IMG/VR virus record: IMGVR_UViG_3300009104_000835
Coordinates: 1 to 26,906 of that record
Strand: one strand, 5' to 3'
DNA length: 26,906 nucleotides
DNA from: a virus
Lineage: Duplodnaviria > Caudoviricetes
Positions 2,212-26,906 of this stretch are shown one piece after another (position 1 is the first letter of the stretch; every line of letters starts with the position of its first letter). The notes under the pieces were generated by a model. That model was not told the origin of the DNA. It did no database searches and worked only from the letters and a program-made list of their open reading frames with translations. Made by a program: the position numbers and the translations under genes.

Positions 2212-4137
2212 GTGGCATTCAACTCTGAGCTTCTACCCGTAGAACTGAATGGTGTTTCCTACGCAATAGATACAGAAATGTATCGACGCACCACAGTTCC
2301 TGTTGCTCGTCAACAACGAGATAACAGTAAAGAGCCGGGAGAAAATACTCTTGACACCACAGGTGCATGGGTTAGATCACAAACAGATTGGTCTTATGGG
2401 GCAGGCCAACTGTATGTAGATAAAGAAGATTCAGATCGACGCCGATTTTATTCATCGCAAGGTATAGACATTTGGACTAAAGGTCAGATGACTTTGCTGC
2501 CGACGACAGAAGATGCAGCTTCATCCCACACATTAGGTACAGAAGATCTAATAGTTAAAAGATTCGTAGCCACAGATGGTACTGAATATATTTATCTTGT
2601 ATCAGATTCAATTATTTTCTACAGCAGTACTGGCGGAGCAAGTTGGACGACATTCAGTGTCACGAACAACGTAACCAGCATTACCTCAGATGGGACATCC
2701 GTTTATATAGGGCGAGATACCACCAATACACCGCTCACAGCCGCACTCGGAAGCAGCACGACATCAGCTTACGGAACAGAAACACCAGACATTCTCGCTG
2801 TTGTCGCTGGTCGTATGATCGGTGCAGATGCTAACTCGATTTACGAACTCGATGCTTCGGGTGCAAAGGTTTCATCTTCATTAGATTTTTCATTTTCGCT
2901 TTCATCAACAACATGGGTTGCAGTAACAGCAGCTTCAAATGGTATCTACGCAGCAGCTAACGCTGACAACACAGGCGCTCTCTATTACATAGGAGTCAAC
3001 AACGCCGATGGCACATTGCGTACCCCAACTATCGCTGCTTCCTTACCTCGGAACGAAACCATTAACGCAATTATTTCTTATGCAGGTCTTATAGGTGTAG
3101 CTACAAGTGTTGGTTTCAGGTTAGCTTTAATCGACCAAAGCTCATCAGGTGTTACCTTAGGGCCAGCGATTGATACAGCGGGAGAAGTTTATTCTCTTGA
3201 AGCTGATGGCAGATTCATTTGGTTTGGAGCAGATAACGCACAGGTTTACCGTGCAGATCTATCTAAATTCACAGAGATATTGGTCCCTGCTTATGCATCA
3301 GACTTACAAATGTCAGGCACAGTAGCGGCAGGAGACAAGGTAGTTTCTTTAGCACGTTTAAATAACTCCTCTGACCCAAAGCTATTCCTTGCCGTGAACA
3401 AAGCTTCAGGTGCTGGCGCTCTTTATAAAGAAAGTTACACAGGGGTAAAGGTATCTTCGGGAGAACTAATTGCAGGGGAATGTACGTGGTCAACGGTAGT
3501 TCCTAAACTACTTCGATCAGGTGTCATCGACCTTGACCGTTCACAATATGAGCGATCCAAAACACCGTATCGTGAATCAGGTACTGACTATACAGATGGC
3601 GATAACACGTACACATTGGGTGAAGAAACAACGACTGCTGCGGGAAAGATAAGACTTAAAGCAGTTAACAGACAGAACACTTCCGCTTACATTCCTAGTT
3701 CAACAGGTTCTTTAACAACAGGGAACGCAGCTACATTTGTATTCCCGACTGACGAGTTGACAGCAATCTCTTATGATTTGACTGTCGAATTGGAAAGGTC
3801 AGCTACAGCTACCACTGTCGCACCTATTTGCCATGACTGGCAGCTAACTGCTGTCGCTGTGCCACCTCGTATAGATGAAATCATTCTTCCTATCTTTTTA
3901 AAACGAGAAGTAAGAACAGCCCGAGGTTCTGGCATAAACAAAACTCTCGCAGCTAAAGAAACTTTTGACAGCTTTCGCACATTGATGGATAGAGGTGAAG
4001 CGATCACTTACAAGGAAGGAGATCGCACAGACACAGTAACCATCGAAAGATTAGAGATGCAACCCGAACGTCTATCCGATGATGGTAGCTGGTGGGAAGG
4101 TACTCTACTGATTAGGTTATTAACTGTTCCATCCTGA
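2212..4137 (+). CDS. Putative tail nozzle / tail tubular protein B-like (beta-propeller-like)
   Basis: 641 aa with GTG start; S/T/G-rich repeated beta-strand segments (YSSTGGASW, SITSDGTSVYIG, SLEADGRFIWFG); follows the adaptor-like gene. Confidence 0.55.
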   Translation: MAFNSELLPVELNGVSYAIDTEMYRRTTVPVARQQRDNSKEPGENTLDTTGAWVRSQTDWSYGAGQLYVDKEDSDRRRFYSSQGIDIWTKGQMTLLPTTEDAASSHTLGTEDLIVKRFVATDGTEYIYLVSDSIIFYSSTGGASWTTFSVTNNVTSITSDGTSVYIGRDTTNTPLTAALGSSTTSAYGTETPDILAVVAGRMIGADANSIYELDASGAKVSSSLDFSFSLSSTTWVAVTAASNGIYAAANADNTGALYYIGVNNADGTLRTPTIAASLPRNETINAIISYAGLIGVATSVGFRLALIDQSSSGVTLGPAIDTAGEVYSLEADGRFIWFGADNAQVYRADLSKFTEILVPAYASDLQMSGTVAAGDKVVSLARLNNSSDPKLFLAVNKASGAGALYKESYTGVKVSSGELIAGECTWSTVVPKLLRSGVIDLDRSQYERSKTPYRESGTDYTDGDNTYTLGEETTTAAGKIRLKAVNRQNTSAYIPSSTGSLTTGNAATFVFPTDELTAISYDLTVELERSATATTVAPICHDWQLTAVAVPPRIDEIILPIFLKREVRTARGSGINKTLAAKETFDSFRTLMDRGEAITYKEGDRTDTVTIERLEMQPERLSDDGSWWEGTLLIRLLTVPS

Positions 4138-11547: not shown

Positions 11548-11587
11548 AAAAAAAATGCCAGCCGAGGACCGAAGTCCCCGACTGGCA
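11548..11587 (-). terminator. Intrinsic terminator after the 318-aa gene
   Basis: On -: UGCCAGUCGGGGAC-UUCG-GUCCUCGGCUGGCA followed by U8; cUUCGg tetraloop and two G.U pairs. Confidence 0.9.
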
Positions 11588-11609
11588 AAATCCAGGGTGA
11601 AGCTAATTT

Positions 11610-12566
11610 CTAGCTAAACTCTACAGGCCCACGTGTCTTACGTGACCAACGCTTGGCAGCATTCTCTTCACGTTGCAGTCTCCAAGCCGCAGAGTCATTC
11701 GTCTGCGCCTCAGACTGCCCGATCAGTTGGTAACCCTCAGCAGCCATCGCATTGACCGCCTCAATCATCTCAGGAATCAGAGCTACCTCATCTTCTGGGG
11801 TAGGTATCCGATGCACCTGATACAGGTCGTAACGTCCAACCGAAGGAGCCTTAGGTGGTGCGTACTTAGACCGACGCTTCGCTGGTTTCTGTGGACCAAA
11901 TAGAGCCACAACCACGTCCACGCCGGGTACTACACGCCACTCCTCAGTTGAGTACGTTTCACCGTCCTCGGGTTCGATAACCTCACCGGTTTCTTCGTCC
12001 ACTGGTGGAACGTTAACCCCGGCGTTGGCCTCATAACCGACCCACAGTTGGTAACCTACCTGCGGTATATCGGCTGTCTTACCACGCCCCGGCTTTAGAT
12101 CTAGGAACATTTCAACCATAGGGTATGTCCAGTTCTCATCAAGAATGAGGCCATCGCCCGGTTCGTCATCCCACGGCTTACGCTCATCGTAATCCTCTGG
12201 AACGTTGAACGGGTTAATAACCCCGTACATCTTGTCCCTATAGACGTCCGTTAACAACATGGCGTGTTCGTCAGTCAACTCAGGACCAGCCTCAGTTGTT
12301 TCGACGAGATGCATCAGGGACTTATCAGTACCCGTGATACCCTCCATGTCCTCAACGGCCATGAACCATTCCAACGGCCAAGCCGAGTTACCATCATGCC
12401 GTGCGTTAGTAACTTTGGATAAGAATTTAACCCTAAAGTTCTCCGCCACGATGGTATCGTGATAGTTCTGCGGTAAGTTACCAATCTCACTCGGATTGAA
12501 CGCAGGTCGATAACGATCGCCCCGTAGTGAGGTGAATATAGTTGCTAAGTTAATTCGATCAGACAT
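11610..12566 (-). CDS. Acidic hypothetical early protein (318 aa)
   Basis: Strong RBS UAAGGAGG and its own terminator; no motif recognised. Confidence 0.85.
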   Translation of the reverse strand: MSDRINLATIFTSLRGDRYRPAFNPSEIGNLPQNYHDTIVAENFRVKFLSKVTNARHDGNSAWPLEWFMAVEDMEGITGTDKSLMHLVETTEAGPELTDEHAMLLTDVYRDKMYGVINPFNVPEDYDERKPWDDEPGDGLILDENWTYPMVEMFLDLKPGRGKTADIPQVGYQLWVGYEANAGVNVPPVDEETGEVIEPEDGETYSTEEWRVVPGVDVVVALFGPQKPAKRRSKYAPPKAPSVGRYDLYQVHRIPTPEDEVALIPEMIEAVNAMAAEGYQLIGQSEAQTNDSAAWRLQREENAAKRWSRKTRGPVEFS

Positions 12567-12640: not shown

Positions 12641-13015
12641 TCAATCAGTCAGTTCGGATAACGTTTGGTCTTCTACCGACCAGTGAACAACCTTGTCCAC
12701 AATCAGTAAATCCAAGGCCCAAGACCAGCGGTCCTGCTTCCTTACGTCACCAACACGATGCAACGGCACCGTTTCCCATTTAACTTTGGACATGTCGTCC
12801 CTCCTGTTTTGTAACATCTGGTTCTGTAACACCTTCAACCTCTCGATCCGTTCAACTACATGCTGATTCCACTGGTCACCAGTGAGGTCACAAGGAAGGC
12901 AACGTTCGTTTACGTTGCCGCAAAAAAGAGCGTGATGCAACGGCGCTCTTTTCCGTTGCCCGCCGGAGGCGAAAATTTCTTTAAAATCCAGGGTAAACCT
13001 AATTCCTTTAAACAT
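12641..13015 (-). CDS. Hypothetical protein (124 aa)
   Basis: AGGAGG upstream of ATG; overlaps the end of the upstream gene. Confidence 0.65.
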   Translation of the reverse strand: MFKGIRFTLDFKEIFASGGQRKRAPLHHALFCGNVNERCLPCDLTGDQWNQHVVERIERLKVLQNQMLQNRRDDMSKVKWETVPLHRVGDVRKQDRWSWALDLLIVDKVVHWSVEDQTLSELTD

Positions 13016-13352
13016 CCAGCACCTCCTGTCCCTTGCACTCAGCCCTATGCCCGCAAATCAGTCTCTCTTCGAAGTTAAGCTCCGTCTTCTTGTATCCTTC
13101 GCCCTCGTTCTCCCCAATCTGTATCCAAATTGGAGTCCTGTAGTAAAACCGCTGCATCCGAGGCTTAAAACACCAAGCAACGTCGTAAGGTCCCATGTGT
13201 TGCGCCCAAAACTCGTTAACTTTGTCAATTTTCCAAGGCAAGTACTTAGGAGAAGAGCACTCGCCCTCTAGGAGTTCCCCCGCCTCGTCAAGTTCAAGGA
13301 AAACTCTCTCTCCCCACTCTTCCCACTTCAAGCCACTTCTAAATTCAGGCAT
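13008..13352 (-). CDS. Hypothetical protein (114 aa), first gene of the leftward arm
   Basis: Purine-rich leader GGGAGGGAAGGAAAGGGAA before ATG. Confidence 0.65.
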   Translation of the reverse strand: MPEFRSGLKWEEWGERVFLELDEAGELLEGECSSPKYLPWKIDKVNEFWAQHMGPYDVAWCFKPRMQRFYYRTPIWIQIGENEGEGYKKTELNFEERLICGHRAECKGQEVLDV

Positions 13353-13374
13353 AATTCCCTTTCCTTCCCTCCCC

Positions 13375-13860
13375 CCTTGGGCGGGCTAACGCCCTCGAAA
13401 CGCAAATTCGAGTGCTTGTCAAGTACCCGCAGTCCGCCGGGTTTTATGTTACAGAGTCTCTTGTTCTCCCCTCTGTAACATAAAAGCAATCTCTCCCGCA
13501 GAGTAATCCGCTCTAGTCAAATGAGATTGCACGAGCGGATCCGCAAGGAGGTACTTTACAAGTGCTTGAACCCAACGGGCGGTCACATCCGAGCATCGAC
13601 TGGTTCTCATTCTCCCTTAGAGTTTCTGGCCCCCCAAAACAGGGGCCGGGAGAAACTCGTCTCGTTCTCCCTGTCGATGTTCGAACTCGGATGTGATCGT
13701 TTGCGTAAGCTCCAAAAGGCCCGCAGCATCCCCGAGGCAATCCCCGACTTCTTTCCCCGCATTTGGGAAAGATGCGGGATTGTCGGACACGCCTAATCCC
13801 TGCTCCGCCGGGAGCGCCCGGCTGATCGTCCACGGATCACTCCGTGGCCGCCGGAGGCTC
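13375..13860 (+). ncRNA. Putative large structured ncRNA (or ssDNA structure), family not recognised
   Basis: At least 12 mutually compatible helices, including 13407-13427/13550-13570, 13442-13456/13471-13485, 13580-13593/13686-13699 and 13400-13406/13700-13706. Wobbles read G.U on +. Confidence 0.7.
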
Positions 13861-13876
13861 ATTAATCCCTAAAGCT

Positions 13877-14075
13877 CACACCCCCCACACCCACACAACC
13901 CTTCAAAATCCAGGATCTACCCCCATCGTTAAATCTTTAGTCTTCCTACCCCCGTGTGGTTAACTTCGTTTGTTTGGTTCGTAAGGGGGGATGTGCCGAG
14001 GCCCTGCCCTTTCTTACACGTGTTATACGTTGTTTTGGTGGGTTTGGTTCAGTTGTTTGTTTGGTGTGTGGTTTA
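13877..14075. repeat. Low-complexity C/A-rich tract followed by G/T-rich tracts (candidate genome end / pac / ori region)
   Basis: CACACCCCCCACACCCACACAACCC at 13877-13901, then GTTGTTTTGGTGGGTTTGGTT...GGTGTGTGG at about 14029-14075, located at the divergence of the two gene arms. Confidence 0.5.
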
Positions 14076-14288
14076 TTCCTTGGTATCCTCCGAGTGTTGG
14101 GGCCTCTCTTGCCTTGACCTAGCCTCTCTGTGCTGGTCGCTCCGTGCCCCCCGGTTTGTGTTGGGCCGTCGTGTCTGGACACGGAGTCAGATGCCCCTCT
14201 GACGGGCGATCGGACCGGTGTTAGCGGCGAGTGCGTTTGTACTGTATCATGTCGGGTCTGGGGGTTCACTCAATTTTTGGAGTTTTTG

Positions 14289-19771: not shown

Positions 19772-20169
19772 TGCCACGCAAAGGTAAAGGTTCCAAAACC
19801 CAACCAATCCAAACAGCAACTGGTCAAACATATGGTGATGCTGGAGTACAAGAACAAGCACAAGAAATTGTGCCGTTGCCGCAAGTCATCGATGCAGAAA
19901 TAGTGGAGCCTGCTCCTCGAACCGGCCCGCAACCGGGGGCTATGGGTAGTCCCTTTAGGCAAACAGAGTTCCCAAACGAATCTGTGATGACAGGAGAAAA
20001 TTATTCTCAGGCAGCCGGTCCTCCACTTTCAGCAGCACGGGCACAACAATTGCCAAGGTTCTTGCATGTAATGGGTGCTTTAGCTAATAACCCCTACGCA
20101 GATGACGGAATGAAAGAAATAGTCCGTCGAATGGAACAATTCGTACCACCATCACCTAGAGCACGATGA
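19771..20169 (+). CDS. Hypothetical P/Q-rich protein (132 aa), probably virion-associated
   Basis: Coupled to the portal (TAATG) and to the giant ORF (ATGA). Confidence 0.75.
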   Translation: MPRKGKGSKTQPIQTATGQTYGDAGVQEQAQEIVPLPQVIDAEIVEPAPRTGPQPGAMGSPFRQTEFPNESVMTGENYSQAAGPPLSAARAQQLPRFLHVMGALANNPYADDGMKEIVRRMEQFVPPSPRAR

Positions 20170-23100
20170 GTTTCGGTAGTCGGGTTTGGAAGATATTCCG
20201 CAATATCCCTGATATAGGGATACAAGCTGCGGACTTTTTTGTTGATGGTATTAGTGCATTGGGGGATGACGAGTTTGGTGTTGTCGAAGGTTTCATAGAA
20301 TCGTGGGAAGATAACGTTTTAGGGAAACCTTCCGGCACGGGAACAGCCGAACGCAGCCTTATAGGTGCAACAATGGGACCGGAAGGTATTATCGGGGCAA
20401 CTGTAGGAGCGATACCTGAAGACGTAAGAAAAGAACTGGGGGCCGACCAGTGGAACTTGATGCTCAGTGGGTTGGATTTCACATGGACATATGGGATTGC
20501 TCGTCCCGTTGCGACTCTTGCCACTATCGCTAACCTGAATCAACTTAGTTTTGAACAAAGTAAATATTTGCAAGCTATCCGGTCTGGAGAAGTAGATCCC
20601 CGTGTAGCAAGCATGAACGGTTGGCTCCCGTTTAATCACCGGACATTTGATCCGACGACGTGGCGTGAAGCATGGAATTTGACACAGCACCGTTCACCCG
20701 GTCAAGCAATGACGCTGGCGTTAAACGGTGTAAATATTTACAATCCTGAAGAACTCAAAGAGTTCAAAGAAACAAATATGTATTACATAACGTCTGGGGT
20801 TCTGGACGTCGGATTAGCTGTTGCGGCTGACCCAACTTATCTAGGAGCAAAAGCCGCACGGTTGAAGGTTTTGAATAGACGAGCACGGAATCTTCACGAT
20901 GCATCGGGTGGCTCAATTACTAGCGTTGGACCATATTTAGAACATGGTGTTGTGCGCCCCGGGTTGTTTGGCGAACGACCTTACATGGAACCGTTTATCC
21001 AAACACAACGTCCGGCAGCACAGCGGGAGTCAATTATTTTGCGGACACCAAGCCGCAGAGATATTCGCATCGGAGGTGAAAAGTTACATAACTGGATATT
21101 GGAACATGAAGCACCTGCCTTAACACGTCTTCTCGGTGGAAGCGTCACAGAGATGTTGACTATTCCGGGCGGCAGAAAAGTTGGATCTCCGGGCCGTGTA
21201 CGTGACGAACTTTTCTTTGAAAACTATTCGTATAAACCTAAATGGATGGACGATCAACCATCCACAATGGATGAAACATTAACAAGCTACGTCGGTGAAG
21301 CAGAACGCATTAAAACAATATTCGACGATGAATTAGAGTCTGCATTAAATAAGGGAGATATTCCTCTTCATGTGATAGGTACGGGGGAAGCAAGCCTCGA
21401 CCCTAGATGGGGCACTACCCCAGCCAGTTTCATTTGGGAATTAAACCCGGACAGCATAGGTGCTTCTCCGTGGCGGACACTCGAAGATAACACTCGCAAT
21501 ATGATTGAGGACTTCCAAACAGAATTCGATAACTTTGCAGAAGGTTTAAGTAGTGGAAAATACTGGGATGCTCGAAGTTTTGGAGATGAGCAAGGACTAT
21601 TTGATGGCCCAACGTTAGATCGGCTCCCCGAAAAAATAGACGAAATCTTTGAGGGTTACCTGCCTTTAGAAGAAGCTTTCCAAGAAACCGTCAGGCGTAC
21701 TGCTGACGTTACGATGACACCCACTACGGGTTTGTTCGCAGTTTTACGAAGCTTGGATCAATTCATCGAAGACACACTTGGTGCTTACACCGACAGCTTC
21801 AATATTGACCCCACTAGTAGTTTGGGCAGGGTATTGCCTGAGCAATACCATGAATTAGCTGACGATCTTTATTCTTTACGGGGACGCTTCATAGCTCTTT
21901 TGGCTGACAACCCTTTGCCAGCACGTGCAAGAGAAACGCTGAAACGTGCCGAAGACGAGGGAAGAGGATTTGCTAGTTGGACAGGTGTCGCAGAGGCACC
22001 AGAGTCAGGACAACTTGTTCGCAATACTGGCTTCACAATGGCCTTGGAAAATCTAATCGATGCGCACCGATTAACAACTAGAACAAATCTCACAGAAGAA
22101 CTCAACCGTGTTATTGAACGCTCCTTAAACGAAATAGATGGTAGCGAGAACTATGCAATAAATAATCTCTGGAATGCGCTTCACCCCGGACGAGGAAGCG
22201 TCGGGCCTCGAAAATTGAGAGAATTAATTCAACGGTTGGACGAACAGTTCCCCGGTATGGGTTGGGATGATTTCCTTGATAATGATTACCTAAGAGATGT
22301 TTTACGAAGACAAGCTGGGGGGAACGAAGATGCTCGTCGTCCATTTGATTCGTCTGAGTTTGGGGACGATTGGTCTGTTAACGAAGGAAGACAAGAACAG
22401 TGGGCTATATATGTAGATCAAGCAACTACCGTCATAGAGGATTTACTTGACCGACAACGAAATACAGCACCATTAAGAGATGCAGATAGCCCTAACCCCT
22501 ATGCAGATTTAGAACAACGCATAGAACAAGTACGGCAAGTTATCGAAGACATCATTGTTGAAGGCGCAATCGAAAGACGGCTCGATGCTCCTGAAAACCG
22601 TGTAAGTCTTTGGGGTCCAGCAGAGTTCGAAGCGATGCAGTCAGGGTTTAACTATTTAGTCGCTGCCACCGACGAAATGATAGATGATTACGTTAGAGCC
22701 GCAATCCCTAATAATCTTCTCGAAGCACAAGAGGCTTATCGAGAGGTTCTCGGTGAGCAATCATCCTTGATGGGGATGGCTGGTGAAATGTCTCCAGATG
22801 ATTGGAACCGGTATGTCGATGATATGTATGGCAAAAATCGTTGGGCTGGGGCAAGAGGATCGTATACAACTGAAAAGTTTTTGGATCGTTTAACTTTACG
22901 TTTGTTTAAAGAGTTGCCTACATGGGGACCGTTCTACAAAGTATTGCCCAAAGATCAGCTTTGGCAGCGAGCACAGATATATGCACGCCTAGCTAATGGT
23001 GGCCCCGTAGACGGTTCTTCGTGGCTTCCTTATTACAATCTTATTCGATTAGAAAAAGGTAACCCTGCTGTCAAAGCAGCGATGACGGCACAAGCAAAAG

Positions 23101-26100
23101 ACTTTTCTTACATTTGGTCTTTGCTGCGAGATATCGAAGCGCCTGTTATCAGGAATATTTCTGGTGATGAAGTTCGAAGTCTTTATGATGCAGAACAACC
23201 TGTGGAGCCTCGTGGTATTAGAGACACCGGAGGAGATCTGTTAGAGATTGATCCCAGAAGGCGACCAGACGATCCCGATACCATCGACTTTTCCTATAGA
23301 CGAGACTTCGAGGAAACACTCAAACTTAGTGATGAAGGCATCGACAAAGTTGTAGATCGCACCAGAGAACCGGGTGACGAAATGCAATATGGGGTACCCA
23401 ATTCGATGAAGATTAGACATAACCAAGAAAGAGTTACGGTTCATTGGCACTTTAGAGAAATTCGACACGCACGACAAAACATTCTTGCTCTTGAAGAAGC
23501 AATACGGAAGCGCAAATTCGATGAAAAAGTAAGACGAGAAGATAAAAACTACGGGGAAGATGAGGTCAGTATTTTAGACGAAGCGACTGAAATAATGGAC
23601 ACAAATGTGTCCTTTGAAATGCTTTCGAAAGCGAATGCTGAACGGTTACGTCTAACACTTAAAGCCAAAGAAGCAGCCCACGCTCTTTATATTAAGAACT
23701 ATTTGTTTAGTCCACGTGCCCTAGCGCAAATGGCCGAAGTCCAAGGCAAACGGCTTATCGAAGACTTAATGAACGAAGTCTGGGAAACAATGCGGATACC
23801 AGAAGCACAACCAGATGCTCCAGCTTGGGCTTGGTCACAACTTGGCCTAGACGTATCGGAAGAAGCTTTACGTCAAGCTGGCGACATAATCGATATGTAC
23901 GAACACGTTAGGTTCGATCATGCTTTAGGTCGGGAAATGGGTTTCACTGACTTTGAAGATCTCTTTCCGGTCGTGCCACCAGCGAGAGGGTTTGTTCGTG
24001 AGAGCGCAAATGATCTCATAGATTTTGCTGGGTTTGATCCCAATAGTCCTTACATGGAATTGATTGACCGCATTTCGGAAATGGATAAATTCCCTTGGCA
24101 AGCAGTCTTGGGGCTAGATGATGCATTAGTGGGGATGTTGGTTAAAACCTATGAACGCATCCCCCCTCTCGGTTTCAAAGAAGATATAGCTACAAATGTT
24201 ATGCAGACAAGAACTGCTCCGTTCGATGATCCAGTTCCCGAAATGCTTAGTTCTACTGAAGCTCATTCTTTAGTCGCAGATCAAATAATAGAAGCTGCGA
24301 TGGCTCCGTTGAATCCTGCGTTAGCTAAAGCTTTGCCATCTGCACCGTCAACAAAGACAGGGGTGCTAGCGAAAACTTTGTTCAGTAAATCAGGACCACT
24401 AGCAGGTCCGATGAATAGTCGTTTCGTTAGGTTGTTCTCTGAAAAAATTCCTCATGGAGTTATAAACGTCCATGACCGGAGCACAGTTGCTAGCCAACTC
24501 GACGTTATGTTCCGTGAATTAGGACGTATCAATCTTTTAGTGCCTCCCGGCATGAGTAGACGTGAGAGAAAAGCAACATTAAAAAATGCTCCCCCCGAGA
24601 CACCTCGGCGTTTAGCTAGTGGTGAAGATTTTACGCTTCTTGATCTTGCGATTATGACTTACAAAGGTACGCCGGAAGCTCCGTGGCCTGTTCCTCGGGA
24701 TCGGGTAGAAGCAGCGCAACGTGTCGATGATCTAATGATCGAGTTCCTTGATTCGTATGGGGATGAATTAGCAATCAAAATTGATCGTCTTAACGAAGCG
24801 GCTCTTAACGGTGCAATAAACGCAGTAACCCCCCACCCAATATTTAAAGATATTGATTGGGGAAGCGCCGGTGTTTCGGCTGCAATGAAAGGAATACTCC
24901 GAGGCGATATTGATGCAGCCAAACGTTTATTAGAAGATGCAGCAGAACACACAGAACGACGATACGGAAATAGTGATTTCACTGAAGTAGTAATCCCAGA
25001 ATTAGGTGGAACGACATTCATTTATAAACCAATGTCTCCGTCCCAAATGCGGCAAACATTAGTGATGCCACGGTGGGACAAGTTCCAACGCCTTTTCCAA
25101 GTACTCCAAGGCGATATAAAAACTATTATCGGACCTAACGGAGAAAACCTTGATGTTTCAGTTAGTGCCAGAAATGCGATAGTTAGAGCGACACGTCGTG
25201 AAGCATTAACAATGTGGAAGCGTCACACACTGTTGACCCCACGTTGGCAAATGGTAGTTAACACAGATTCGCAATTACGCAATATCGCACATTTGGGGGC
25301 TGCGATGGCGTTGGGGCGTCTTGGTGGGTCATTCGATGAATTACGTGTTCGTTGGCTTCGTAAAGCTGGTGTAGATATAAACGCTGTGGTGGCTGACAAA
25401 CTTGTCGAGCAGTTGCCGGATGGCTATATGGGGGCAGGTTGGGTTAAGCAAGTCGAGTTTTATAAACGATCACACGATGAAGGTGTGGTCGGATTTGAAA
25501 GAACAATAGAAGAGTTTGTAGCTGATGCGATTGGGGAAGAGTACGCAAATAAACGTGCGAATATAAGAACTCTTGCCATGACTGGATCAGGTTGGTTCTT
25601 TGGTGGTCCGGTAGGCGCTGCTGCTGCGGCTGGACTTTACACAGCATACAGCCGTGACAGTTTGGCGAAACTTGCACGTCGCCAATTGGCTGATACATAT
25701 GGTGTGGCTTTGCGGGCAGAAGCGTTGGATCTGGTTGAACGTGCGAACAGGCTAGATATTTCGGAATTTATGCGGGCACAATATCCTGACCTTCCGCAGT
25801 ATGCGCTTGACGAAGTAGCAGAGATAAAAGCTGAACATTGGTTAGTCAGAGATGAAGCGTGGAATAGTTGGATCAATGAAGCAGGCACTACAGAATCTTG
25901 GATGTACAGGCGACTGTTAGAAGATGAAGGGTTAATCAATGCAGGAGATATCGCTGCTCGTATAAATTGGCAGCTTATTCAAGAACTAGGTGCTAAAGCT
26001 AGAGGGGACACACCCTTTGGGCGGTATTTCATCGATCCAATGGTAACTCCAGCTTCTGACAAAGCTATGAGGAATATGCGTGCTTTCCGCGCTAGGCGAG

Positions 26101-26906
26101 ATGGCGTCGACCGGAGCGGGGTTCCACTTCGTGGTGACAGAGTTAGTTGGGACGATATTGCTAATACTGAGGTATATAGCAGAAGCTCATATTTAACCCA
26201 ACTTATTATCGAACATAGGTTCAATAAGCTTCAGGCGGTAAATGTGGACGGTTTGGACTTAATTGTTTGGCCGCCTATGCAAGGCTCATTGATGCCAGAT
26301 ATACAGTTCTTTATCCAAGCAGAAGATGTAACTCAGATACTTGATACACAAGGCTCATTAAAAAATCTGGCAGAACAGCTACAAACTACGATTAAAGATC
26401 GCAACGAAGTCGCTCGACTATTGGCTACCCGTGCCGAAATTGTAAATGACTATCAAACCAAAATTGTTGGTGATGCGAAATTAGATCCGAGCATGGGTAA
26501 ACCAATTTCTATGCTCGAAGAAGCAGCAGAGATTCTAAACGAGTGGGGTTACGGGTCAACACAAGTTGGGTCCACACGTGTAGATAAAGCGTTCGGTAAC
26601 ACTCCGCAGCAACAAGAAATTTGGCGACGTGGAATATCAGCTAATCCAATGGCAAGAGCACAACTTGACGCTGAAGCCGATGTGCAAAGACGTTTCGAAA
26701 AATTCCAAGGCGCTCACCAATACGACATATTGAACCAATACGAAGAAGCTAATTTTTCTAAAGCGTATGACGATTTCTTAATTCGCCACGTGATTCCACA
26801 GGATCTCGATAAAACAAATCTTGCTCAACAATTGTGGGCGAAAGTATTTTCGGAAACAGAAAGAGTGGGGGGATATGATCCTAATGAAATTGTTAAGTGG
26901 ATGCGT
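20166..26906 (+). CDS. Giant protein (at least 2247 aa, 3'-truncated), probable internal virion / DNA ejection protein
   Basis: ATG at 20166 (MSFGSRVWKIFRNIPD...). The same frame is open wherever I translated it and at the window end (...DPNEIVKWMR). The ORF track has no closed + ORF here, consistent with no stop codon. Confidence 0.85.
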   Translation, partial: MSFGSRVWKIFRNIPDIGIQAADFFVDGISALGDDEFGVVEGFIESWEDNVLGKPSGTGTAERSLIGATMGPEGIIGATVGAIPEDVRKELGADQWNLMLSGLDFTWTYGIARPVATLATIANLNQLSFEQSKYLQAIRSGEVDPRVASMNGWLPFNHRTFDPTTWREAWNLTQHRSPGQAMTLALNGVNIYNPEELKEFKETNMYYITSGVLDVGLAVAADPTYLGAKAARLKVLNRRARNLHDASGGSITSVGPYLEHGVVRPGLFGERPYMEPFIQTQRPAAQRESIILRTPSRRDIRIGGEKLHNWILEHEAPALTRLLGGSVTEMLTIPGGRKVGSPGRVRDELFFENYSYKPKWMDDQPSTMDETLTSYVGEAERIKTIFDDELESALNKGDIPLHVIGTGEASLDPRWGTTPASFIWELNPDSIGASPWRTLEDNTRNMIEDFQTEFDNFAEGLSSGKYWDARSFGDEQGLFDGPTLDRLPEKIDEIFEGYLPLEEAFQETVRRTADVTMTPTTGLFAVLRSLDQFIEDTLGAYTDSFNIDPTSSLGRVLPEQYHELADDLYSLRGRFIALLADNPLPARARETLKRAEDEGRGFASWTGVAEAPESGQLVRNTGFTMALENLIDAHRLTTRTNLTEELNRVIERSLNEIDGSENYAINNLWNALHPGRGSVGPRKLRELIQRLDEQFPGMGWDDFLDNDYLRDVLRRQAGGNEDARRPFDSSEFGDDWSVNEGRQEQWAIYVDQATTVIEDLLDRQRNTAPLRDADSPNPYADLEQRIEQVRQVIEDIIVEGAIERRLDAPENRVSLWGPAEFEAMQSGFNYLVAATDEMIDDYVRAAIPNNLLEAQEAYREVLGEQSSLMGMAGEMSPDDWNRYVDDMYGKNRWAGARGSYTTEKFLDRLTLRLFKELPTWGPFYKVLPKDQLWQRAQIYARLANGGPVDGSSWLPYYNLIRLEKGNPAVKAAMTAQAKDFSYIWSLLRDIEAPVIRNISGDEVRSLYDAEQPVEPRGIRDTGGDLLEIDPRRRPDDPDTIDFSYRRDFEETLKLSDEGIDKVVDRTREPGDEMQYGVPNSMKIRHNQERVTVHWHFREIRHARQNILALEEAIRKRKFDEKVRREDKNYGEDEVSILDEATEIMDTNVSFEMLSKANAERLRLTLKAKEAAHALYIKNYLFSPRALAQMAEVQGKRLIEDLMNEVWETMRIPEAQPDAPAWAWSQLGLDVSEEALRQAGDIIDMYEHVRFDHALGREMGFTDFEDLFPVVPPARGFVRESANDLIDFAGFDPNSPYMELIDRISEMDKFPWQAVLGLDDALVGMLVKTYERIPPLGFKEDIATNVMQTRTAPFDDPVPEMLSSTEAHSLVADQIIEAAMAPLNPALAKALPSAPSTKTGVLAKTLFSKSGPLAGPMNSRFVRLFSEKIPHGVINVHDRSTVASQLDVMFRELGRINLLVPPGMSRRERKATLKNAPPETPRRLASGEDFTLLDLAIMTYKGTPEAPWPVPRDRVEAAQRVDDLMIEFLDSYGDELAIKIDRLNEAALNGAINAVTPHPIFKDIDWGSAGVSAAMKGILRGDIDAAKRLLEDAAEHTERRYGNSDFTEVVIPELGGTTFIYKPMSPSQMRQTLVMPRWDKFQRLFQVLQGDIKTIIGPNGENLDVSVSARNAIVRATRREALTMWKRHTLLTPRWQMVVNTDSQLRNIAHLGAAMALGRLGGSFDELRVRWLRKAGVDINAVVADKLVEQLPDGYMGAGWVKQVEFYKRSHDEGVVGFERTIEEFVADAIGEEYANKRANIRTLAMTGSGWFFGGPVGAAAAAGLYTAYSRDSLAKLARRQLADTYGVALRAEALDLVERANRLDISEFMRAQYPDLPQYALDEVAEIKAEHWLVRDEAWNSWINEAGTTESWMYRRLLEDEGLINAGDIAARINWQLIQELGAKARGDTPFGRYFIDPMVTPASDKAMRNMRAFRARRDGVDRSGVPLRGDRVSWDDIANTEVYSRSSYLTQLIIEHRFNKLQAVNVDGLDLIVWPPMQGSLMPDIQFFIQAEDVTQILDTQGSLKNLAEQLQTTIKDRNEVARLLATRAEIVNDYQTKIVGDAKLDPSMGKPISMLEEAAEILNEWGYGSTQVGSTRVDKAFGNTPQQQEIWRRGISANPMARAQLDAEADVQRRFEKFQGAHQYDILNQYEEANFSKAYDDFLIRHVIPQDLDKTNLAQQLWAKVFSETERVGGYDPNEIVKWMR

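Follow-up and report, generated by a model that had tools for sequence, protein, structure and literature searches.

Promoters that host RNA polymerase reads on folded single-stranded DNA (ssDNA) are known from conjugative plasmids and from ssDNA phages, both of which clearly pass through a single-stranded stage, and single-strand origins such as ssoA and ssoU are known from plasmids. In the Frpo/ssi promoters of F, ColIb-P9 and pESBL (classes 1-3) the folded strand rebuilds a −35 and a −10 box for the host holoenzyme, and does so only as ssDNA, according to three reports (PMC9849209, PMC11541004, PMC12672017), through which we also refer to the earlier work of Masai and Arai (1997). M13ori is described as acting without the usual −10 and −35 and yielding an 18-nt primer (PMC7430646). 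Phage N4, a tailed dsDNA phage, reads its early promoters with its own virion polymerase on a folded single-stranded template carrying GGA or GAA mini-hairpin loops; GNA mini-hairpins are highly stable as DNA and much less so as RNA, and are found at phage ssDNA origins and priming sites as well as at the N4 promoters (PMC13037366).

The element described here lies at positions 13381-13724 of a 26,906-nucleotide stretch of phage DNA (the window). It resembles the Frpo/ssi promoters in that a non-coding stretch of the template strand directly ahead of a gene is predicted to fold back and rebuild −35 and −10 at promoter spacing, in that the duplex has no good promoter at the sequence level, and in that SSB is among the predicted target genes. 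Unlike in those large stem-loops on conjugative T-strands, the boxes here lie 60-186 nt apart and are predicted to come together only through a four-way junction; the carrier of the element is a tailed dsDNA phage in which no relaxase was found among the scanned ORFs, and blastn returned no match in 72,556 plasmids (E ≤ 0.1) or 50,697 phages (E ≤ 1). Neither sequence nor T-strand context thus makes it a member of the Frpo/ssi group. With the M13/f1 minus-strand origin and the plasmid single-strand origins (PMC7430646, PMC7948647) it would share the property of being folded ssDNA on which host polymerase starts RNA, but unlike M13ori it has full, conserved −35 and −10 boxes aimed at a Shine-Dalgarno (SD) sequence, and no rolling-circle initiator was found among the scanned ORFs. 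The likeness to N4 lies in the tailed dsDNA carrier, the predicted reading of early promoters on a folded single-stranded template and the mini-hairpin loops, and the difference in the boxes, which are those of a host sigma factor. Our literature search, beyond which most subscription papers lay, listed no account of a tailed dsDNA phage with an ssDNA promoter for host polymerase, nor of any such promoter split by a junction.

The window is a complete 26.9-kb viral contig of a tailed phage, contained at 99.9% identity in IMG/VR record G001 (37,994 bases), and a relative, G003, is complete at 36.2 kb, closing via a 230-base assembly overlap. The stretch occurs in marine metagenomes; no RNA run was listed among them, which carries no weight for or against a transcript. 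A family scan of 37 + 29 ORFs from the window, G001 and G003, short ORFs and those G003 ORFs with an obvious window counterpart being left out, identified capsid, terminase and endolysin genes. To the right of the fold lie the terminase, a DNA methyltransferase-like gene and a ferredoxin; to its left, on the − strand, lie genes for DUF932, a Cas4/RecE-like exonuclease, a Sak/Erf-like annealing protein, SSB and RusA. The scanned ORFs gave no match to primase, helicase, polymerase, integrase, relaxase, transfer or rolling-circle Rep families, and several proteins had no family, among them an early protein of 318 aa with 14 homologues, none of them named, and no Atlas match. In G003 (L293) a staphylococcal-nuclease-like gene and a second SSB (2553-3512) are among the first early genes downstream of its own copy of the element. 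A giant protein without a family is encoded at 20166-26906 of the window and at 6349-15669 of L290 (1,827-3,106 aa in relatives), with a weak Atlas likeness to LPD38/LPD3 polyvalent proteins. As three such giant proteins share no RNA polymerase catalytic motif pattern in a crude motif search and have no PDB match at E ≤ 1, an N4-type virion polymerase is not supported.

The host is likely a marine acidimicrobium, because the named relatives of the phage ferredoxin (15544-15786) belong to Acidimicrobiia (Iamia, Microthrixaceae, Acidimicrobiales; 73-78% identity); counter to this, three of the seven genome-collection contigs carrying the terminase are binned as Dehalococcoidia. A cysteine-rich 90-aa ORF follows the ferredoxin. 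A second structured stretch (12795-13005, local z −4 to −5) contains a − strand terminator-like hairpin (12898-12919) and two GTAACA repeats, and the 124-aa ORF at 12641-13015 probably represents a 50-aa gene whose start, at 12793, follows a GGAGG site. The sequence AAAATCCAGG occurs three times in the window (11583-11611, 12979-13007, 13901-13921), each time near the start of a leftward unit, and may be a regulator site.

The original prediction placed at 13375-13860 a new structured RNA of ~490 nt built around a perfect four-way junction. The folded feature is real. All eleven of its named helices that we tested pair as claimed, including the long helix 13407-13427/13550-13570 (20 of 21 paired, three G.T), and the four abutting helices on the + strand are borne out by covariation in homologues, counted on motif-anchored columns. 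The idea of a single unit does not hold, since the core is confined to 13381-13724 and the domains 3′ of it are separate and swapped among relatives. As RNA, a 496-nt region reached z −8.60 on the + strand and −8.33 on the − strand against dinucleotide shuffles, none of 100 shuffles equalling it on either strand; as DNA, 13372-13740 reached −9.79 on + and −6.69 on −. The tile at 13301 was the most stable of 38 tiles of 360 nt over the window (−26.7 kcal/mol relative to shuffles; runner-up −13.4). In the DNA ensemble the junction pairs have probabilities of 0.82-0.98, and the closing helix 13381-13387/13718-13724 only 0.41-0.48. The Rfam comparison foreseen with the prediction produced no hit at the gathering score, whether for the window or for 12 related loci; at E ≤ 10 only chance miRNA-type hairpins appeared (E 0.14-3.5), with no 6S match, and ARAGORN found no tRNA or tmRNA. 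A coding reading was rejected: no family matched the ORFs of 81-107 aa that lie inside the element on either strand, and relatives could not be aligned here as coding sequence. Among four DNA runs, the contigs of one have a gap at 13729-13876 and those of another span it; such gaps and contig depths carry no weight. The parts of the element and its surroundings are listed in Table 1.

Table 1. Predicted and candidate parts of the folded element and neighbouring features (positions in the window)
Feature	Position	Strand	Remarks
First leftward gene, 114 aa, no family	13008..13366	−	Ribosome-binding site ~13357-13366; predicted target, 36 nt from predicted start
Core fold, four-way junction predicted to rebuild a sigma-A promoter	13381..13724	+	Homologues L084, L201, L079, L171, L190, L139, L135
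Predicted transcription start, leftward	~13387-13388		Placed from promoter geometry
Template side of predicted pre-opened bubble	13388..13399	+	Opposite 13707-13717
16-nt template spacer	13401..13416	+	Pairs with 13561-13570 and, across the junction, 13700-13705
Template-side −35 half, TGTCAA (TTGACA read leftward)	13417..13422	+	Invariant in 8/8
Arm 1, upstream of −35 in the fold	13428..13549	+	Candidate UP element or regulator site
A/T-rich hairpin in arm 1	13442-13485	+	Conserved TTACA/TGTAA stem, pyrimidine-rich loop
Non-template −35 box TTTACA (relatives TTGACA/TTGACT)	13555..13560	+	Pairs with 13417-13422 in the fold
Spacer loop-outs, the two junction arms: mini-hairpin CCC-AAC-GGG and arm 2	13571..13699	+	
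Non-template −10 box TAAGCT (TANNNT)	13706..13711	+	T-12 pairs with A13400; A-11 and T-7 mismatched
Two extra hairpins	13744-13786, 13807-13822	+	Not conserved in family members
Mobile module: pseudoknot-compatible stems, then GCC-GGA-GGC mini-hairpin	13823..13858	+	Second copy at 12926-12970
C/A-rich tract, no predicted structure	13878..13935	+	
Conserved non-coding block from WWGTC motif (A|GTC 13939/13940)	13938..14250	+	Candidate terminase cut and direct terminal repeat

Relatives of the terminase were found at 75 loci, which share a non-coding block at ~13940-14250. Anchoring on this block gave 212 matches, 97 of them with at least 400 nt upstream, and 58 distinct slots in the place of the fold; counts given below for 57 slots omit one that is a near copy of the window. 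The slots hold several unrelated sequences, often strongly folded. Family A, homologous to 13381-13724, comprises eight complete and non-identical members, which amount to only four independent lineages (the window with L084 and L201; L079; L171; L190 with L139 and L135), and in addition L081, truncated at its 5′ side. New members were obtained only through the anchoring: pattern scans returned 2, 5 and 46 stretches, a profile search of which gave no further member. Since the −35 of L079 was misaligned in the sequence alignment, covariation was counted on motif-anchored columns, with three columns omitted for L190.

When the fold is followed along its non-template path, a −35 box, 16 nt and TANNNT succeed one another in all eight complete homologues from the four lineages, and in the window these boxes are 145 nt apart in the linear sequence. 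The long helix of every complete member pairs TGTCAA of the 5′ arm with TTTACA, TTGACA or TTGACT of the 3′ arm, and the adjoining 16 nt of the 5′ arm pair first with the bases that follow the −35 and then, across the junction, with those just before TANNNT. The −10 hexamers are TAAGCT, TACCCT (twice), TAGTTT, TAGTGT and TACTTT (three times), with TATGCT in L081. The best-scoring register is 16 nt in seven of the eight; in L190 the two sides differ by one, with 16 nt along the non-template path and 15 along the template. The usual spacing is 17, and 16 nt is shorter. The TT.AC of the −35 is invariant, and the spacer columns show two to four Watson-Crick pair types each. With L190 omitted, the spacers of the seven other members match their own partners at 11-14 of 14 columns, whereas 34 pairings across lineages average 4.9 (range 2-11). 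T-12 is paired with A in all eight, A-11 in none, and T-7 in one, as G.T. On fork-junction DNA, sigma-70 reads T/A-12 in its paired form but A-11 and T-7 as unpaired bases of the non-template strand (PMC3753650); as the paired T-12 and the unpaired A-11 and T-7 match this recognition, the fold would present a pre-opened promoter. The probability that T-7 is unpaired in the window is just 0.25-0.31 at 10-20 °C, and a junction in the middle of the spacer may not stack like straight B-DNA.

Read as duplex, the leftward strand has a perfect TTGACA followed after 16 nt by TT or TC, never by TA at −12/−11 (8/8). Ahead of the first gene a linear leftward promoter is absent in seven of the eight, L079 having one 4/6 promoter-like site in arm 1, and none was found to the right of the element in the eight homologues or in the window scan. 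The predicted +1 lies 33-50 nt before an SD sequence and start codon in every member, and the first genes are of four different kinds. A scan for this fold-promoter layout matched 10 of 58 slots on the + strand, none of 58 on the − strand and 4 of 174 shuffles. The matches are seven members of family A and three of family C, an unrelated straight hairpin with the same layout, and 48 slots had none. The scan was designed after family A was known, so its seven matches there are not independent, and it missed the members L190 and L135. The rightward promoter offered with the original prediction, TTCAAG-N17-CATAAT (13327-13355), is present as a sequence, but it runs into the start codon of the leftward gene, does not pass the consensus scan and loses the final T of its −10 in both close relatives (CATTAC in L084, CATAAC in L201).

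To get clues to the molecule that folds, we counted loop types. In the 57 slots, stems of at least three pairs carried 59 C(GNA)G triloops (23 distinct), against 11.5 in shuffled sequences, and stems of at least four pairs carried 20 against 2.6; read on the other strand, the triloops numbered 19 against 11.3. GNRA loops stood at 19 against 20.7 shuffled (9 against 5.0 on stems of at least four pairs) and C(UNCG)G loops at 1 against 2.1. In family A alone, C(GNA)G loops numbered 10 against 1.5 and GNRA loops 7 against 3.0. The looped-out arms vary freely in sequence and length among relatives, their mini-hairpin ending there in GAA, GCA or TT, and homologous tips exchange GAA, GCA, TT and, once, GCAA; the GCAA tetraloop seen in the window by the original prediction is present. 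DNA energies favour the + over the − strand in all eight members, and RNA energies in five. In the paired core columns 19 cells are G.T and none is A.C, and when all slots are counted more crudely (460 G.T against 545 A.C) there is no strand bias; as far as the alignments go, the wobbles of the core fix the + strand and not the type of molecule. Five short motifs of the element were absent from the searchable supplements of PMC10690425, other files of which may list it as a candidate RNA. The element is probably not an RNA, and from the loop types and the conserved TTGACA we infer DNA as the folding molecule. The headline of a new RNA thus gives way to the second option of the original prediction, a folded ssDNA element near a genome end, which fits the evidence: the loops are of the DNA type, the proposed promoter is not conserved, and the conserved letters are precisely those of a sigma-70/sigma-A promoter put together by the junction.

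The 13823-13858 module, with its two interlocking stems, recurs in relatives with compensatory changes in both stems. It was found in 13 of 18 distinct GGA-hairpin contexts, against 20 of 1450 random slot positions; two of these 13 may come from unrelated DNA. The two copies in the window are possibly protein-loading or priming sites on ssDNA.

Where single strands could come from depends on the position of the fold in the genome. The closest named terminases are those of Streptomyces Beephvirinae, at only 22-23% identity. In these phages (Manuel, Immanuel3, Stella) terL lies close to the left end, while the right end has small leftward genes and a long stretch without coding sequence, a layout like that seen here, and exact terminal repeats of 276, 275 and 263 bp start at A|GTCCC in all three genomes, which recalls the A|GTC of our block. 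The motif WWGTC within 20 nt of a switch from C/A-rich to G/T-rich sequence occurs in 51 of 57 slots, against 163 of 961 background windows, and lies at 13938-13942 in the window. The block that it opens is conserved in all close relatives, more so than the folded slot, and is a candidate terminal repeat and packaging signal. By eye, its end carries a conserved TACTGTATCAT / TAGTGTAACAT (14240-14250), which may be the −10 of a rightward late promoter. Contig ends do not cluster at WWGTC; a terminal repeat would not require this, and it draws no support from it. More weakly, the fold would sit ~230 nt inside the right-hand direct terminal repeat of a linear genome, on the strand with its 3′ end at the right terminus. 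5′-to-3′ resection of the AdnAB/RecBCD type, or unfinished lagging-strand synthesis as in T7, leaves a 3′-ended strand bare, and the + strand would be exposed by either because its 3′ end is at the terminus.

We read 13381-13724 as a junction-assembled ssDNA promoter for the host sigma-A polymerase that would drive the leftward early genes, and put the probability of this reading at about 0.6. Sequence comparison shows the features on which it draws: the geometry and its covariation, T-12 paired and A-11 unpaired, a −10 that is dead in the duplex, and the position before an SD sequence and start codon. The + strand, laid bare when the incoming end is resected 5′ to 3′ or when lagging-strand synthesis is left unfinished, would fold into the four-way junction, which would join the boxes into a pre-opened promoter with 16-nt spacing. 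Host sigma-A RNA polymerase would then bind and start leftward at ~13387, and the transcript would run into the operon with DUF932, the Cas4-like exonuclease, the Sak/Erf annealing protein, SSB and RusA. The promoter is likely to be active only while the DNA is single-stranded and would be switched off by synthesis of the complementary strand. Its RNA may also act as the primer for this synthesis, a role proposed for Frpo.

That priming could instead be the main job. The folded-DNA promoter might serve chiefly to make a short primer for copying the + strand from the genome end, as a single-strand origin, with the early genes transcribed otherwise. The scanned ORFs of the window, G001 and G003 offer no primase, helicase, polymerase or integrase family, Frpo also primes replication (PMC12672017) and GNA mini-hairpins mark phage priming sites (PMC13037366). 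We nonetheless consider this unlikely: an mRNA start would fit the constant 33-50 nt to the SD sequence and start codon and the first gene's want of a linear promoter, the scanned ORFs gave no rolling-circle Rep, and the element is not a universal origin because most relatives lack it by our scan and yet share the replication gene set. A non-productive dock at the genome end, where the fold would bind holoenzyme or a phage protein for end protection, DNA entry or concatemer joining with no useful transcription, appears decidedly improbable. It would suit family B, a distinct large fold (L277, L170, L134, L145) that retains the GTCAAG/CTTGAC helix and the TGTTAC..GTAAC hairpin of family A without a −10 at 16-18 nt spacing, and the many other slots that are strongly folded, with DNA-type loops and no promoter match, but mere binding has no need of the exact −12/−11/−7 pattern of family A or of its link to the SD sequence.

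The remaining rivals make the folded molecule an RNA. 6S RNA has the shape of an open promoter, and GOLLD and ROOL are large multi-branch phage ncRNAs. A + strand transcript could fold as a promoter mimic that traps sigma-A polymerase in the manner of 6S, or be another large phage ncRNA like GOLLD and ROOL, which it resembles in size, multi-branch fold and non-coding location. The strong RNA fold, the G.U-type wobbles on the + strand, the covariation, the pre-opened bubble with equivalents of A-11 and T-7 and the single GCAA loop would all agree with this, but we regard it as improbable, in that DNA-type triloops are enriched and RNA tetraloops are not, and homologous loops swap GAA, GCA and TT. 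Unlike 6S, GOLLD and ROOL, the element has no Rfam match, and no conserved rightward promoter upstream or terminator downstream of it was found in the window or its homologues. As RNA, moreover, the − strand folds better in the window and two other members of the eight, and a decoy leaves the fixed link to an opposite-strand SD sequence unexplained. A structured 5′ leader of the − strand early mRNA, made from an ordinary promoter further right, would agree with the − strand RNA fold and with the place of the element, which adjoins the first leftward gene upstream. It is the least probable of these readings, and very improbable: the wobbles become A.C on the − strand (19 cells), there is no linear leftward promoter to the right in the eight homologues or the window scan, the loops are stable only on +, and TANNNT would be meaningless.

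The slots of other relatives suggest a wider picture for the junction-assembled promoter. By sequence, family C (L037, L038, L167, L296, L297, L155, L177) is a simpler, Frpo-like form in the slot that family A occupies elsewhere: its long straight hairpin carries TTGCAA-17-TATGGT on the 3′ arm, and in other members CAAGGT or CAGGCT, with a bubble that by eye opens at A-11. That arm pairs, in addition, with the sequence complementary to the first gene's ribosome site and start codon. In families B and D no fold promoter was found in the slots. One to four boxes CGAAC-N4-GTTCG, which we take to be the actinobacterial LexA box, occur in 6 of 58 slots (L048, L050, L051, L065, L068, L188), none of them a fold-promoter match, and in G007 four of the six copies in the genome lie within 300 bases (control 0). 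LexA likewise responds to ssDNA. By eye, the slots of the distant relatives L062, L068 and L070 show GTNAC-N6-GTNAC repeats, presumably of the GlnR/MtrA type, beside ordinary leftward promoters, and their GTTAC/GTAAC word also builds the arm-1 hairpin of family A. Tentatively, and as a possibility that we would not yet bet on, these tailed dsDNA phages may carry, just inside the first-entering end, a split promoter that is an ssDNA sensor. End-resecting host nucleases, or replication, would strip the opposite strand, so that the attack itself would switch on genes for SSB, annealing and resolvase, and relatives would fill the slot with interchangeable ssDNA sensors such as straight hairpin promoters or clusters of LexA-type boxes.

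Comparison of the homologues gives strong evidence for the promoter geometry; the single-stranded stage is an inference. The element departs from the Frpo/ssi kind in the predicted joining of its boxes across a four-way junction and in having a tailed dsDNA phage as carrier. A −35 and −10 joined by a junction escape promoter scans and resemble a structured RNA in RNA-motif screens, and if a junction promoter can be mistaken for a structured RNA, some candidate phage ncRNAs may be DNA devices. Comparing C(GNA)G with GNRA and UNCG loops would be a cheap way to tell DNA from RNA in such cases. A natural promoter gated by ssDNA could potentially be reused in synthetic biology. For the phages themselves, such a promoter, if true, would point to an unrecognised single-stranded stage at the genome end.
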